Shown one piece after another: positions 53,712 to 58,895 of a stretch of 64,000 nt of DNA. Position numbers and translations under genes: made by a program. The DNA comes from Candidatus Omnitrophota bacterium (GTDB lineage Bacteria > Omnitrophota > Gorgyraeia > Gygaellales > Profunditerraquicolaceae). Positions within the stretch are counted from its first letter, which is position 1; each line of letters opens with the position of its first letter. The stretch is from the NCBI GenBank assembly GCA_041651115.1, contig JBAZJY010000001.1, positions 69,165-133,164 of the forward strand, given 5' to 3'. The notes beneath the pieces are model-generated. The model saw only the letters and a program-made list of their open reading frames with translations. It was not told where the DNA came from and did not search any database.

Positions 53712-54620
53712 ATGCAAGAATATACGCTTACCGTATCTGAACAGGATGTCGGCAGCCGCCTGGACATATTTTTATTTGAATTTTCCAAGCGCGACAATAT
53801 CGGCCTGTCCCGCACTTTTATCCAGAAACTGATTGAAAACGGCAATGTCAGCGTTAACGGCGTAGTTGTAAACAAGGCCAAGCATAAAATGAAACTCGCC
53901 GAAGCGGTCCGGGTTTCCTTTGAAGAGCATAAGCAGTCTTCGGCGGCAGCAGAAGACATTCCCCTGGAAATTATTTATGAAGACGATGACCTCGCGGTAA
54001 TAAATAAACCTATCGGGTTAGTTACTCATCCTGCGCCCGGAAATTACGAGCACACGCTGGTCAATGCGCTATTACACCACATCAAGAAACTTTCCGATAT
54101 TAATCCTGAAAGGCCGGGCATAGTTCATCGTTTGGATAAAGATACTTCCGGGCTGCTTGTCATCGCCAAAAATAATGCCAGCCATTTGAATCTCGCCCAG
54201 CAATTTGCCAAGCATGCAATCAAACGCCAGTATGCCGCCGTTGTTTTCGGAAAAATGGAATTTGACGAGAATATTATTGAGATCCCTATCGGAAGGCATC
54301 CGTACAAGCGTAAAAGTATGTCCGTAGGCTTTGGTAAGAGCACAAAATACGCCAAGACCTTATATCGCACAATAAAGCGCGGCAAAGAATTCACGCTGGT
54401 TGAGCTGGAACCGTTTACCGGAAGGACGCATCAGTTAAGGGTGCACCTGGCGTTTATCGGCCATCCGATCATCGGAGATATCAAATACGGCAAGCATACG
54501 GTTTTTAAGCGGCTTGCCCTGCACGCGAAATTACTCGGCTTTACCCATCCCCGCACCGGGAAATATCTGGAATTTTCCTGCCCCGTGCCGAAAGAATTCG
54601 GGGAGATAGTAGGAAAATAA
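53712..54620 (+). CDS. rluD: 23S rRNA pseudouridine synthase, RluA/RluD family
   Basis: An S4-like N-terminus and the catalytic motif HRLDKDTSGLLVIAKN. Confidence 0.85.
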   Translation: MQEYTLTVSEQDVGSRLDIFLFEFSKRDNIGLSRTFIQKLIENGNVSVNGVVVNKAKHKMKLAEAVRVSFEEHKQSSAAAEDIPLEIIYEDDDLAVINKPIGLVTHPAPGNYEHTLVNALLHHIKKLSDINPERPGIVHRLDKDTSGLLVIAKNNASHLNLAQQFAKHAIKRQYAAVVFGKMEFDENIIEIPIGRHPYKRKSMSVGFGKSTKYAKTLYRTIKRGKEFTLVELEPFTGRTHQLRVHLAFIGHPIIGDIKYGKHTVFKRLALHAKLLGFTHPRTGKYLEFSCPVPKEFGEIVGK

Positions 54621-54715
54621 ACCTTGAAAATCGGTAATTTTATGGTATATTTTAAGTAGATTTTTAGGAAAGCGTTTTCGCAGGAGGCGCGAAAGCGCGA
54701 TATACGGTTTGAATA

Positions 54716-54770
54716 AACCGGAATGCCACGGAAAAAGAAAGAGGGTTGGCTTCCGGATTTTTTATTTTTT
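54716..54770 (+). terminator. Candidate rho-independent terminator after rluD
   Basis: An imperfect stem (ACCGGAATGCC ... GGCTTCCGGAT) is followed by TTTTTTATTTTTT. Confidence 0.35.
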
Positions 54771-54812
54771 GATATTTAAAACTTTGATAAACAATTGAAG
54801 AAAGGGATAGCG

Positions 54813-57800
54813 ATGTTAAATAAAATAATATCCTTAGTCTTAAGCTTCGGCTTGCTCTTTCAGCAAATAAGCTTTGCGCAAATCGCCACAGAGTTAAACC
54901 TTTCAAATTACCTCTCTAAGATCAGCAGCAATATAATTCAGGAAAAATTCCGGCCTTTACACCTACGTTATTTCTCTTATGACAGCTTAAATGATAATTT
55001 TAAAATACTTCTTGATAAGGGTAGCGTAAAACAGCTGGATGATGTCAAGGCGCAGGAATCAGCTAAAACGCTATTAAGCTACTTTTTAATAGGGGTAACT
55101 CTTCCTGATGAAGCATTCTGGGTTAACTTAAGGCCTGACACAGAAGACCAGATCATAGACCCGTCTTTGGAGAAAACTGATGTCGGTAAGATTATGCTGG
55201 AAGCAGATCTCCAGCTTAAGAAAGACACTGCGCTTTTTACTTCTCCCAAGACTCCCGAAGGAAAAGAATACTGGAATAAGCTCTATAAGAAAGCGGGAGA
55301 GCTTTGCGGTAATGATAATGTTACCATTCCTACCTTAACCCGGCCCTGGATAGTCCCCGGGGAAATAATTGTCAGGGAAGCGAAAGATTCAGCTTATGTC
55401 TATAAAGCTACATTAAAGGTAATGTTAGAACAGGATTATCTTAAAGATTCCGCTACCTATAGCTTTAAAGATGAACGCTCTAAAGCGTTAAATGAATATT
55501 CTTCGCAGCTAATCCGAGAACTAATTATTCCTAAACTTACCAAAGAAGTAAATTCAAGCAAGAGGTATGCAGCCTTGCGTCAAGTTTACTATTCATTAAT
55601 TCTCTCCCGATGGTTTAAGCTGCGTTTTAGCGGCAAAACCGGCACCTACGCTTCATTGATCAATACTAAAAACCTTACCAACTTAGTTTCTCAAGAGGCT
55701 TGGTCAAAAACCGAATATTTTAAGCAATATAAAAAATCCTTTGCCGAGGGTGAATACAGCATCCAGGAGCCCGTTTATACCCCTACAGGGCAAGTTATCA
55801 GAAGCTACTTTAGCGGCGGCATAAATGTAGCCAGCAGCGCTATTAATACGCAGAATGGTGCTATCTTTTTAAATGATAATGCAAATAAACTGGGCGATGT
55901 CATTGGGGGTAGGGCGGTCCTTGATTTAAAAAGTATAAATCTAAAACCGATTGCCGTAAGCTCACCGATAACTAACCCAGACAAAGTTACAATCGAGTTC
56001 CCTATTGAGGAATGGTCTGCTTACGAAGATCAGTACGGACTTGGCTCTGGTCCAACTATTATTAACGCAGTGCCCTATGCTCTTTTAGAAGAAGTTAAAC
56101 GGAAATTCGGTAAGCAGGTTATTATTGATATATCAATATTTGATCATGAAAGTTCTACGGATGATTACGGAGGTTGGAAGGGATCATATAAAACAAAAAC
56201 AACATTGATTTTCTCCCAGGATATTGCCGATAAAATTAAAGAAGTAGTCAGAAAATATTATCCGAACGAATCTTTTAGTATTAGTTTACCTTTTCATTTA
56301 GATGAGGCTGCCATTTTAAGCTTTAAAACAACAGTCCTCAGTTTAGTAAAAAACAACCAACGAACATCGTTAGACAGCTTAATTGATTCTCTACCTCAAG
56401 GCTCCGCCGTAAGGAATGCTTTATTTAATTTAAAGCACCTCCATGGTAAGCCGACCGATGAAGCTGTTCAGCGAATAATTAAGGAAAATAATCTTAACGA
56501 CGCCGAACAGGCAGCTATTGTTCAGGTGCCTATTGTTTTACTAGCGCAGCCGGAAGTCACAATTGAATTACCTATCGATGAATGGTCTGGTAGTGAGGAT
56601 ATGTACGGGCTTGGTTATTCAACTCAGACGAACCCGATACCAAGAGGTTTTCTGGAGGAAATTAAAAGTAAATTTAGCAAGCAGGTTAGCATTGATCATG
56701 GAATATTTGATAGCGAAAATTCTGAAGATAATGTTGGGGGCTGGAAAGGTTCCTTTAAAACAAAAACAACATTGATTTTCTCCCAGGATATTGCCGATAA
56801 GGTTAAAGAAATATTCAGAAAATATTATCCTAACGAATCTTTTTTCGTTAGTTCGCCAATTAAAGATACTACAGAGGATAGCTCGCCGGTTTCTAAATTT
56901 GTAACTTTACCGGTAAACAAAGACGAGCAAGGTTTGGATTTTAGGGATGTTGAAAAAGCAATTGCGAGCGGAAGAATGGCGATTGCTGAAGTTTCGGTTG
57001 ATTGGGCAGAGAAAATAAAAAAGACTTTTCCTGATGAGGTTTATACTATTTTTATATCTCCTTTGAGCGAAGAACAAATTACAGAGCGTATGCGAAAGAA
57101 GGGTCAAGCGCGAGAGGCGGTTATTTTTGACGAGATGACAGGAAGACAGAGAGAGCGTGCCATAGAAAAACCAACGGATGAAAAGAAACAACTTGCACGC
57201 GCTCAAGCGTCAATTATAGAAATGTCTAGACAGAATGAATATGATATCGTTATTGTCAATAACGTATTAAAAGATTTAGAAAAAGATAATATTCGGTGGG
57301 CAGGTGAAGAGGGGGCTAAGGTAGTCTCGAAGTTTATGGGCGCTGTGGATAATGCCAGGAAGGATGGGAAAAAATTGATTCTGTATTCCGGCCCTTCTGC
57401 CACCGGGAAGAGCCCATTGTGGAACCAAATACAGCAGAGATATGGTGATCAATTTTCGCGTATTGTTCTTCATACAACACGCCCGATGCGAGACGGAGAA
57501 GAGAACGGAGTAGATTTTCATTTTTCTCCGGTTACAAAAGACCAAATTGAAAAAATCGGGATGGATTGGAATGACACTTCCAGTAAGCTTGTTAAAAATG
57601 GCTGGGCCCAGCAAGTAAGTCCAACAGAAGTAATTATGTTGACGAAAATAGAGAAAGAAAAAGATAAGGCGTTGGAAGCTTTTGGTGACAATCTCACGAA
57701 AATCTTACAGGCTCCTGTTGAGCAGTTAAAAGAGCTTGAGAAAAAAATTAATGCTTCTAGTCCTGTGTTAAACAGGGAGGATGATTTATATATTCCAACT

Positions 57801-58895
57801 TCTCAAGGTGAAGCCTATGATGCCGTAATGGCAACGTTAACTAAAATAAGAGGTACCCAGGAAAGTCACGGCTATCCGCTCTTTAAAACAAATATCGACA
57901 GAAATAAGGTGGAAGAGGCTTTTTCTGCTAAGAAAGCTACTCAAATAGGTTCGGTTCTTTACGGGTATGATACAGGTGATTATTCTACCGATTACGAAGT
58001 TACCGTTAATTTTAACGAGGCCAATATAACATTAACTTTTTTAAGCAGAGAAGAAAAATATAAATTAGAACGGCCTTTTAGCGAAGAGCGGGTAAGAGGA
58101 CAACTTTTTGCGATTCTTTGGAATATCGGTTGGGCCCACAAAAACATATCGTTTTCGGTTTCCGAAGAAATAGCGATTGATTCAGTAGAAAACCGCCATC
58201 TTCTTGCGGGGCCCGGTACGGATGATGAACATTACCAGGATGAGCCGGGCTATCAAGAACTGAGAGAAGCCTATGATGCAGTTATGGAAAAGATAAAATC
58301 TGCGACAGAAGCCAAGATCAATGAAATAATCAATTGGGTTAAGGAAAATCCGGAAATAAATTTCAAAATAGAAGAAGTTTATGTCCTTGGCGGAACCGGC
58401 CAGGAAGCAGGTATAGTCGGGCGCATTGACCGTGGTATTGCTGAAAAACTTGGACTTGCTTATGGAACGATCAATTTTTTAACGCAAGATATATCCAAGA
58501 AAACGGATAGAAAGAATAATAGCTCGCCGGTACGATCGATGTCCGGAAAAACAGGCGGTATTGATTTCCGTGCTTTACCGATGGCTATTCAGCCTATGGG
58601 GAGTTTTGGTAGTTTGAATTTTACGCTGCCTCAATTAAGCCAGGTGGAGCTTGAGAAAATAGATGTCGCTGCCGAGATACAACAGATCAAGAATATGGTG
58701 CAATCCGGGATTATCCCCTCCGGCGAACGAGTAAAATATCTTATTGCTGCTTGTGAACAAAAAGGGGAAATAAATTCTCAAGTGGACAACCTGTTGTTAT
58801 GCCTTACGGATATTTTTAAGCTGGAAGAAGAAAATGCTAGCGAGAGTTCTCCGGAATTAAGGGAAGCATTGGTAATTGTTGATATGCAGGCCTAA
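54813..58895 (+). CDS. Giant (about 1360 aa) secreted multi-domain repeat protein with guanylate-kinase-like P-loop segments; no confident family assignment
   Basis: The N-terminus looks like a signal peptide (MLNKIISLVLSFGLLFQQISFAQIA). Two roughly 105-aa internal repeats share stretches of identical DNA. GK-like motifs occur (GPSATGKS ... HTTRPMRDGEENGVDFHF; FISPLSEE ... YDIVIVNN). GC content is visibly lower than in neighbouring genes. ATG 54813 follows AAGGGA; the track ORF starts at TTG 54795. Confidence 0.75.
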   Translation: MLNKIISLVLSFGLLFQQISFAQIATELNLSNYLSKISSNIIQEKFRPLHLRYFSYDSLNDNFKILLDKGSVKQLDDVKAQESAKTLLSYFLIGVTLPDEAFWVNLRPDTEDQIIDPSLEKTDVGKIMLEADLQLKKDTALFTSPKTPEGKEYWNKLYKKAGELCGNDNVTIPTLTRPWIVPGEIIVREAKDSAYVYKATLKVMLEQDYLKDSATYSFKDERSKALNEYSSQLIRELIIPKLTKEVNSSKRYAALRQVYYSLILSRWFKLRFSGKTGTYASLINTKNLTNLVSQEAWSKTEYFKQYKKSFAEGEYSIQEPVYTPTGQVIRSYFSGGINVASSAINTQNGAIFLNDNANKLGDVIGGRAVLDLKSINLKPIAVSSPITNPDKVTIEFPIEEWSAYEDQYGLGSGPTIINAVPYALLEEVKRKFGKQVIIDISIFDHESSTDDYGGWKGSYKTKTTLIFSQDIADKIKEVVRKYYPNESFSISLPFHLDEAAILSFKTTVLSLVKNNQRTSLDSLIDSLPQGSAVRNALFNLKHLHGKPTDEAVQRIIKENNLNDAEQAAIVQVPIVLLAQPEVTIELPIDEWSGSEDMYGLGYSTQTNPIPRGFLEEIKSKFSKQVSIDHGIFDSENSEDNVGGWKGSFKTKTTLIFSQDIADKVKEIFRKYYPNESFFVSSPIKDTTEDSSPVSKFVTLPVNKDEQGLDFRDVEKAIASGRMAIAEVSVDWAEKIKKTFPDEVYTIFISPLSEEQITERMRKKGQAREAVIFDEMTGRQRERAIEKPTDEKKQLARAQASIIEMSRQNEYDIVIVNNVLKDLEKDNIRWAGEEGAKVVSKFMGAVDNARKDGKKLILYSGPSATGKSPLWNQIQQRYGDQFSRIVLHTTRPMRDGEENGVDFHFSPVTKDQIEKIGMDWNDTSSKLVKNGWAQQVSPTEVIMLTKIEKEKDKALEAFGDNLTKILQAPVEQLKELEKKINASSPVLNREDDLYIPTSQGEAYDAVMATLTKIRGTQESHGYPLFKTNIDRNKVEEAFSAKKATQIGSVLYGYDTGDYSTDYEVTVNFNEANITLTFLSREEKYKLERPFSEERVRGQLFAILWNIGWAHKNISFSVSEEIAIDSVENRHLLAGPGTDDEHYQDEPGYQELREAYDAVMEKIKSATEAKINEIINWVKENPEINFKIEEVYVLGGTGQEAGIVGRIDRGIAEKLGLAYGTINFLTQDISKKTDRKNNSSPVRSMSGKTGGIDFRALPMAIQPMGSFGSLNFTLPQLSQVELEKIDVAAEIQQIKNMVQSGIIPSGERVKYLIAACEQKGEINSQVDNLLLCLTDIFKLEEENASESSPELREALVIVDMQA

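Follow-up and report, generated by a model that had tools for sequence, protein, structure and literature searches.

A probable circular permutation of a guanylate kinase-fold domain in a modular Omnitrophota protein

The gene and its guanylate kinase-like module

The stretch of DNA analysed here, referred to as the window, comprises 64,000 nucleotides of contig JBAZJY010000001.1 (assembly GCA_041651115.1, Candidatus Omnitrophota bacterium) and carries on its plus strand, at 54813..58895, the gene of the modular protein WC532_00635. This uninterrupted open reading frame (ORF), delimited from the ORF list and its translation, encodes 1,360 amino acids (aa) from an ATG, with an alternative TTG start at 54795, and its product matches with 100% identity and coverage the NCBI entry 'MAG: hypothetical protein WC532_00635 [Candidatus Omnitrophota bacterium]' (P0001; MAG, metagenome-assembled genome). 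Between two SSPV linkers recognised by motif statistics, one directly upstream (56880..56891) and one directly downstream (57756..57767), lies a kinase module (aa 693-985, nt 56889-57767) that very probably constitutes a single, circularly permuted domain of guanylate kinase (GK) fold, most likely still an ATP-dependent phosphotransferase, with an acceptor that is probably not GMP. An earlier note, made from the sequence alone, had described GK-like segments in an unusual order over a slightly narrower interval, within what it called a giant secreted protein, although 1,360 aa makes the protein large rather than giant.

In the order in which it is encoded, the module begins with a β-hairpin (FVTLPV / EQGLD; 56898..56939) of the nucleoside monophosphate (NMP)-binding lobe, the counterpart of 'FIEWAQ...YYGS' in yeast GK, which forms the new N-terminus of the permuted domain according to a rotated alignment and to strands E7-12 and E15-20 of the AlphaFold2 model (pLDDT 86-94). 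The C-terminal two-thirds of the GK core come first (56940..57365), as delimited by NCBIfam, by BLAST to the relative P0121 and by alignment. They harbor the motifs AEVSVDWA (56985-57008) and IFISPLS (57048-57068), a 23-aa insertion in the LID that is a trait of the subfamily (57126-57194), the motif YDIVIVNN (57240-57263) and, at 57297-57365, a subfamily C-terminal extension together with the junction to the old N-terminus, the insertion and the extension being read from the alignment. The N-terminal third of the core is encoded last (57366..57566, from Pfam and PDB sequences) and contains strand 1, the P-loop, helix 1, strand 2, the phosphate motif and the next helix; within it, KKLILYSGPSATGKS occupies 57369-57413, the P-loop GPSATGKS with Lys866 lies at 57390-57413 (aa 860-867), and the phosphate-binding motif HTTRPMRDGEENGVDFHF at 57471-57524. 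An extra α/β sub-domain of ~63 aa (57567..57755), revealed by alignments and AlphaFold2, is inserted in the last helix. All strings cited in the earlier note are found in the product (KKLILYSGPSATGKS at aa 853-867, HTTRPMRDGEENGVDFHF at aa 887-904, IFISPLS at aa 746-752 and YDIVIVNN at aa 810-817), the latter two segments being located ~106 aa upstream of the P-loop block.

Sequence comparison places the module in the GK superfamily (PF00625), with a similarity far beyond chance. The Pfam profile PF00625 (Guanylate_kin) scores 65.8 bits (E=5e-18), above its cutoff of 25.2. This match falls into two stretches, of which the better one aligns aa 854-914 to profile positions 3-61, and NCBIfam PRK14737 aligns aa 707-821 to its positions 82-173. 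A search of PDB sequences returned guanylate kinases only, again in swapped order (chain 93-170 of 6wct_A with query 701-780, chain 9-69 of 4qrh_A with query 853-915), and the GK domains of MAGUK proteins were among the weaker matches. The PHROGs scan gave a guanylate kinase match (E=2e-15) and added nothing beyond it. The precedence of the C-terminal-like part over the N-terminal-like part, as read in the earlier note, is thereby borne out by Pfam, NCBIfam and PDB sequence searches, and the resemblance extends beyond generic P-loop residues.

One domain in rotated order

The protein P0121 contains the same distinctive subfamily in normal order, also between two SSPV linkers, with its motifs arranged as P-loop ... 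TSRxxRxGE ... FVTMNVHGDFQGIDL ... AEVSVDWA ... IFISPLS ... YDAIVIND ... FM. It was one of the two proteins, together with P0122, returned by a word-indexed homologue search with the module alone. By BLAST, module residues 7-153 correspond to P0121 134-280 (46% identity, E=6e-45) and module residues ~160-229 to P0121 ~68-130 (E=7e-24), so that both blocks together span the P0121 domain exactly once, with nothing missing or doubled. When rotated in silico, ten permuted modules become collinear with ten normal-order relatives and nine bona fide GKs, the latter being seven database GKs plus the yeast and E. coli enzymes, whose sequences served as rulers only. The core measures 223 aa, which is the length of one GK plus the 23-aa LID insertion and the C-terminal extension of ~25 aa, both of which are also present in the normal-order relatives.

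Structure prediction points in the same direction, as the module is predicted to fold into a normal GK-type core. With an alignment of 28 rows, consisting of the ten permuted modules and normal-order relatives that were each supplied as two fragments, AlphaFold2 yields one compact fold with a pLDDT of 95.9 and a pTM of 0.90, in which the N-terminal hairpin is confident. The list of GK secondary-structure elements is complete in this model, each element appearing once and cyclically rotated: hairpin E7-12/E15-20, helix, strand (AIAEV), helix, strand (YTIFISP), LID helices, strand (IVIV), two helices, strand (LILYS), P-loop, helix, strand (RIV), strand (DFH) and helix. One compact permuted domain is thus modelled, neither two domains nor unrelated folds. 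Foldseek searches of both AlphaFold2 models against the PDB produced no significant match, and only the ranking is informative, with guanylate kinases showing the highest homology probability (0.85-0.89) at a TM of only ~0.4 and non-significant E-values; this outcome is expected, because Foldseek aligns in sequence order and the topology is rotated.

The chain is cut within the NMP-binding lobe: the helix coming after the DYxF strand lies on one side of the break and the 'FVTL' strand on the other. The new chain ends flank this helix-to-strand loop, which is one site of the fold according to both alignment and AlphaFold2. A stretch of 13 residues, FM-GAVDNARKDGKKL-ILYSG, connects what was the C-terminal helix to what was the first strand, and a junction of the form FM-(13 aa)-ILYSG is kept among the permuted members, including P0131. 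The normal-order relatives (P0121, P0126-P0130, P0132, P0133, P0135 and loci L005-L007) are 40-55% identical to the permuted form and share with it QG[LI]D, AEVSVDWA, IFISPLS, the LID insert with RQxER and W.G.EG..V..FM, as well as their position as SSPV-flanked cassettes of multi-enzyme proteins, but they keep the ancestral N-to-C order.

The earlier note had left the choice between tandem domains and a circular permutation, and the permutation is the alternative that is strongly supported. Two tandem GK-like domains are rejected, since the P-loop, the TTRxxRxGE motif and every core strand occur just once and AlphaFold2 yields one compact domain. A variant of that idea would have two adjacent partial domains, a decayed C-half followed by the N-half of another copy, which do not fold together; the profiles of Pfam and NCBIfam do match as separate stretches in swapped order, and tandem GK-GK proteins exist elsewhere. 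It is nevertheless very improbable, as every structural element is present exactly once, an N-half of 60 residues alone would be unable to form a P-loop kinase, the model is a single compact domain with a pTM of 0.90, dN/dS is ~0.1, and both blocks and the junction are kept in at least ten lineages. That the source is a MAG could also suggest that the swapped order is an artefact of assembly or gene calling, but the chance of this is negligible, given that the ORF is uninterrupted and that the same breakpoints and junction length recur in independent assemblies (NCBI, JGI, ENA, Logan) and in four GTDB species genomes.

The permuted form is apparently rare, and all its carriers are apparently Omnitrophota multi-enzyme proteins. 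An exhaustive search of 1.84 billion cluster representatives with a hidden Markov model (HMM) retrieved nine proteins that match the whole permuted profile in one stretch (P0001-3, P0005, P0020, P0123-5 and P0131), and about a dozen more representatives that belong to the same subfamily in normal order and are matched as two stretches. P0004 is a tenth permuted protein, and a scan of GTDB species genomes added four permuted loci (L001-L004), two of which (L003 and L004) carry the module in ORFs of more than 4,200 aa, together with three normal-order loci. The module is under purifying selection, with dN/dS values of 0.10-0.14 against L001-L003 at a dS that is near saturation. A neighbour-joining tree built from the rotated alignment groups nine permuted modules together in 200/200 bootstraps and nests them within the normal-order subfamily; the permuted state is therefore derived. 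P0131 is permuted as well, with the same breakpoints and junction length, yet the tree places it among normal-order sequences, and monophyly of all permuted modules including P0131 is recovered in only 33/200 bootstraps. The same cut may therefore have arisen either once or twice.

A second, different permutation is found in a sister GK-like subfamily, characterized by the motifs YTSR ... HGED..W, whose normal-order members are P0122, P0150 and P0151. In P0199 and P0176, which are complete ORFs standing alone in two unrelated genomes, the chain begins at strand 2 (...LYTSR) and finishes with KKLVVLSGPSCTGKGPLW..., which puts the P-loop last, the cut being in the loop between helix 1 and strand 2. 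P0199 (229 aa; L008 189-878) is bounded by stops and adjoins a H+-pyrophosphatase gene in a genome of 65% GC, and P0176 (242 aa; L009 3001-3729) lies near CARF/Cas genes in a genome of 29% GC. Residues 4-174 of P0199 match P0150 35-215 (E=2e-29) and residues 203-227 match P0150 2-26 (E=7e-5). In this branch of the GK fold, topology therefore seems to have changed more than once.

As for the origin of the permuted form, the ancestral chain would have run from strand 1 through the P-loop, the NMP-binding lobe, the core and the LID to the C-terminal helix, and would have been opened within the second of these lobes and elements, the NMP-binding lobe. Circular permutations usually come about through a tandem duplication whose two ends are then trimmed. 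The permuted form probably descends in this manner from a relative in the same Omnitrophota subfamily that had the normal order, by duplication in tandem and subsequent loss of both outer parts. Tandem GK-GK fusions occur in public data (P0138, P0147, P0162, P0182 and P0256) and are the kind of duplication intermediate from which circular permutants would arise. The tail sub-domain of ~63 aa, which AlphaFold2 models confidently, is present only in the window protein and P0002. Its identification as a relic of a second GK copy was considered and is not supported: the tail alone gives no GK profile match, and Smith-Waterman comparison of the tail (aa 917-981) with the protein's own C-half gives z=3.4 (p ~0.01), and z ~0 in P0002.

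Active site and likely function

The P-loop G.SATGK. is invariant in the six sequences of alignment A1, almost every member has GPSATGK[ST] unchanged, and the alignments show the P-loop, TTRxxRxGE and the LID arginine of 'ARA' to be invariant or nearly so. In yeast GK the phosphate of GMP is bound by Arg38, Arg41, Glu44 and Tyr50. R890, R893 and E896 are kept here, and the position of Tyr50 is taken by Phe902, as it is by Phe in P0123, the other permuted members having Tyr. The residues of the yeast enzyme that recognise guanine (Glu69, Tyr78, Ser80 and Asp100) correspond in the rotated alignment to Val697, Gln706, Leu708 and Ser728, respectively. The same replacements are found in nearly all permuted and normal-order members, whereas the aligned bona fide GKs keep the canonical residues. 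What had been described as a GMP-binding signature thus holds for its phosphate-binding part, with F902 in place of Tyr50, but not for guanine recognition. Of the catalytic residues, Lys866, Arg890, Arg893 and the LID arginine of 'ARA' (aa 795-797; Arg796, the counterpart of yeast Arg146) are retained, and the first LID arginine positions vary. The 23-aa LID insert carries a conserved RQxER.

Scores against the equivalogs of Gmk are low, namely 78 vs 160 bits for TIGR03263, 52 vs 318 for PRK14737 and 63 vs 263 for PRK14738, with matches that are split and swapped. Because the guanine-recognising positions are replaced and these scores are about half the cutoffs or less, the module is to be regarded as GK-like rather than as a bona fide Gmk, and since the residues that read guanine are replaced throughout the subfamily, the acceptor is probably not GMP. 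In the proposed mechanism, the module most likely binds ATP at its intact P-loop, through Lys866, and most likely passes the γ-phosphate to an acceptor that is itself phosphorylated and is bound by Arg890, Arg893 and Glu896. From its sequence, it is probably an active ATP-dependent phosphotransferase of GK fold with an acceptor other than GMP.

Several points weigh against this picture of a single, permuted and still active kinase. The good AlphaFold2 model leaned on an alignment in which the normal-order relatives were split into two fragments, and a model from six sequences reached a pLDDT of 75.7 and a pTM of 0.64, with the 19 N-terminal residues (the hairpin) and the TTR loop unplaced and of low confidence. 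A tandem intermediate of this exact subfamily was not found, and the likeness of the tail to a second copy is weak in one protein and absent from the other. Tyr50 of yeast GK is replaced by Phe902 in the window protein, the first LID arginine positions vary across the subfamily, a kinase behind a Sec-type signal peptide would have no obvious ATP supply, and both catalytic activity and substrate are inferred.

Some of these points would fit a permuted domain without catalytic function, which would serve for binding or as a scaffold and, in the manner of MAGUK GK domains, keep a phosphorylated ligand or partner within the multi-enzyme protein. The loss of the guanine-recognising residues, the Phe at the Tyr50 position of the window protein, the variable first LID arginines, the presence of MAGUK domains among the weaker PDB matches, and the predicted export, which would leave the domain without ATP, all favour such a role. 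It is nonetheless considered unlikely. MAGUK GK domains have lost the P-loop, and whereas a dead GK of that type is recognised by loss of the P-loop and of catalytic residues, here almost every member has GPSATGK[ST] unchanged, TTRxxRxGE and a LID arginine are conserved, the LID insertion has an Arg-rich motif of its own (RQxER), and the module is under strong purifying selection. The intact P-loop in particular argues against a MAGUK-like binding module and leaves the phosphotransferase as the preferred interpretation.

Compared with Gmk (EC 2.7.4.8; yeast 1GKY/1EX7, E. coli 2AN9), the module shares the fold family, the P-loop, TTRxxRxGExxGxD[YF]xF, the core strands, and the LID and NMP lobes. 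It differs in its rotated order, in scores far under the equivalog cutoffs, in the replaced guanine positions, in the 23-aa LID insertion and the ~25-aa C-terminal extension, and in being embedded in a protein of 1,360 aa with a signal peptide. Natural and functional permuted P-loop NTPases are already known in the circularly permuted GTPases of the YjeQ/RsgA and YlqF/RbgA class, which belong to TRAFAC, have the order G4-G5-G1-G2-G3 and act in ribosome assembly. A natural permutation of a P-loop NTPase domain is common to both, but P-loop class, breakpoint and function are different here. In permuted adenylate kinases engineered in the Silberg laboratory, new termini were best tolerated in the AMP-binding lobe, and activity and substrate binding were kept (bioRxiv 10.1101/840603; 10.1101/2023.10.25.564053). 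Those are laboratory constructs of a related NMP-kinase fold, whereas the case described here is a natural and conserved permutation of a GK-like domain; by analogy, they provide an experimental precedent suggesting that activity can survive a cut in the NMP-binding lobe.

No paper was found that links Omnitrophota with guanylate kinase, and none of those retrieved with 'circularly permuted' and 'guanylate kinase' appears, by title or abstract, to describe a permuted GK. As far as titles and abstracts go, no description of a naturally permuted GK or NMP-kinase fold was found. Enzymes are rarely permuted in nature, and the cases that exist reveal where a fold can accommodate new chain ends. In this case nature appears to have made the cut that is best tolerated in the laboratory scans of adenylate kinase, in the mobile NMP-binding lobe, and several lineages have retained the permuted product under purifying selection. 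The normal order, the two permuted orders and the tandem fusions together make up a small natural series on topology change in P-loop kinases. There is also a warning for annotation, as profile tools report 'guanylate kinase' for a module that has lost the guanine-binding residues and whose substrate is probably a different one.

The cap-flanked multi-enzyme family of Omnitrophota

The window protein follows the pattern of a very large family, of which a first search matched 827 proteins: a signal peptide with an N-terminal domain of ~360 aa, a C-terminal domain of ~120 aa, and variable enzyme cassettes between both. Its signal-peptide-like N-terminus, MLNKIISLVLSFGLLFQQISFA followed by Q (54813..54881, +), was assigned from the hydropathy pattern and is kept in paralogues. 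These 23 residues contain a basic n-region, then a 15-aa hydrophobic stretch (mean Kyte-Doolittle 1.97), and small residues at -3 and -1; across the family the segment is R/K-rich and then reads ILSLVLSFGLLFQQxxFA before Q. Beyond it, hydropathy detects no other hydrophobic segment of membrane-spanning length in the window protein. The N-terminal 'cap' domain (54882..55967) was recognised by family search, and hundreds of multi-enzyme proteins of Omnitrophota have it; in 121 of the 123 family proteins matched it stands at the N-terminus, and its mean column identity is 59%. The C-terminal 'cap' (GGIDFRALP...IVDMQA; 58533..58892, by family BLAST) looks like a sorting or assembly cap; of the 135 family proteins, 116 have it, in at least 85 cases at the extreme C-terminus. 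Neither cap has relatives in Pfam, NCBIfam or PDB sequences. At least one further paralogue with the N-terminal cap, P0096, is encoded on the same 647-kb contig.

The cassettes carried between the caps are ordinarily cytosolic: phosphoglycerate kinase, GAPDH, enolase, phosphoglucomutase (PGM), phosphoglucose isomerase (PGI), phosphoenolpyruvate (PEP) synthase/pyruvate phosphate dikinase (PPDK), triosephosphate isomerase (TIM), fructose bisphosphate (FBP) aldolase/phosphatase, NUDIX, adenylate kinase, DnaJ and HEAT/TPR. The earlier remark that GK-like modules are not standard in a signal-peptide-bearing protein is correct in general, but within Omnitrophota more than 800 proteins fuse the same N-terminus to enzymes of this kind. 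The motif SSP[VI] is counted 149 times among the 135 family proteins, compared with 6.0 +/- 2.3 after shuffling, and [AS]SSP[VI] marks the module junctions. Five sites are found in the gene (55959-55970, 56850-56861, 56880-56891, 57756-57767 and 58521-58532), and their codons differ, which therefore points to a constraint on the peptide; the motif could be a processing, modification or linker signal.

Upstream of the kinase, a module of ~105 aa is present in two copies (55977-56312 and 56553-56861), an internal duplication with 66% identity. Between them lies an 80-aa helical module (56313-56552), which is also found twice in P0002 and once in P0123. Downstream, a 251-aa uncharacterised module (57768..58520), delimited by BLAST within the family, trails the permuted kinase, whole or in part, in seven of ten permuted proteins and is also found without a kinase module in P0007. 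It has no Pfam, NCBIfam or PDB match, and it may be a functional partner of the permuted kinase. No consistent partner domain emerges, since the Pfam domains that co-occur vary (HEAT repeats, DUF218, alanine dehydrogenase).

Long and giant Omnitrophota proteins, described as 'Archaeovorins' and as 'multi-enzyme metabolic clusters', tile cytosolic-type enzymes (PPDK, NUDIX, PGM, kinases, HEAT/TPR) on one polypeptide and are mostly predicted to have a signal peptide and/or membrane helices (10.1101/2023.11.21.568195; 10.64898/2026.06.07.730766). The window protein differs from them in its length of only 1,360 aa and in lacking any predicted membrane helix apart from the signal peptide. The architecture of N-cap, C-cap and SSPV did not turn up in searches of these two papers, and a term search of one of them found no mention of 'guanylate' or 'permut'.

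If export is real, the kinase would need a source of ATP. Speculatively, it might be delivered to prey or host cells, or might act on nucleotides set free by the lysis of cells. A broader proposal, which is rather improbable, sees in these proteins an exported Omnitrophota 'polyprotein', whose caps would carry ATP-handling and glycolytic enzymes to the cell surface or into prey or host, with SSP[VI] as sites of processing or modification. Under this proposal the permutation would place both chain ends on the mobile substrate-binding lobe and would have been selected so that neighbours acting there, such as the 251-aa module, could gate or feed the active site, and the two permutations would serve as a model for the rewiring of enzyme topology. 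In any case, the permuted kinase draws attention to a large and poorly described family that places cytosolic-type enzymes behind a conserved signal peptide, with the question of where their ATP would come from and how they would acquire it. The surrounding family is arguably a more intriguing problem than the permutation itself.

The WC532_00635 gene sits between rluD and a coiled-coil gene/aroA, and is markedly AT-richer than its surroundings, with a GC content of 0.39-0.415 in 54001-58000 versus 0.47-0.51 in the housekeeping neighbours. A conserved gene neighbourhood was not found, as none of the flanking genes of the window adjoins the relatives. Together, the AT-richness and the absence of a common neighbourhood suggest that a mobile or fast-evolving gene family was inserted there. 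The 64-kb window contains no canonical gmk, which is uninformative for a window of this size. Two antisense ORFs on the minus strand (56907-57206 and 57276-57614; 99 and 112 aa) overlap the kinase module and are most likely spurious, because of the strong protein-level conservation on the plus strand.

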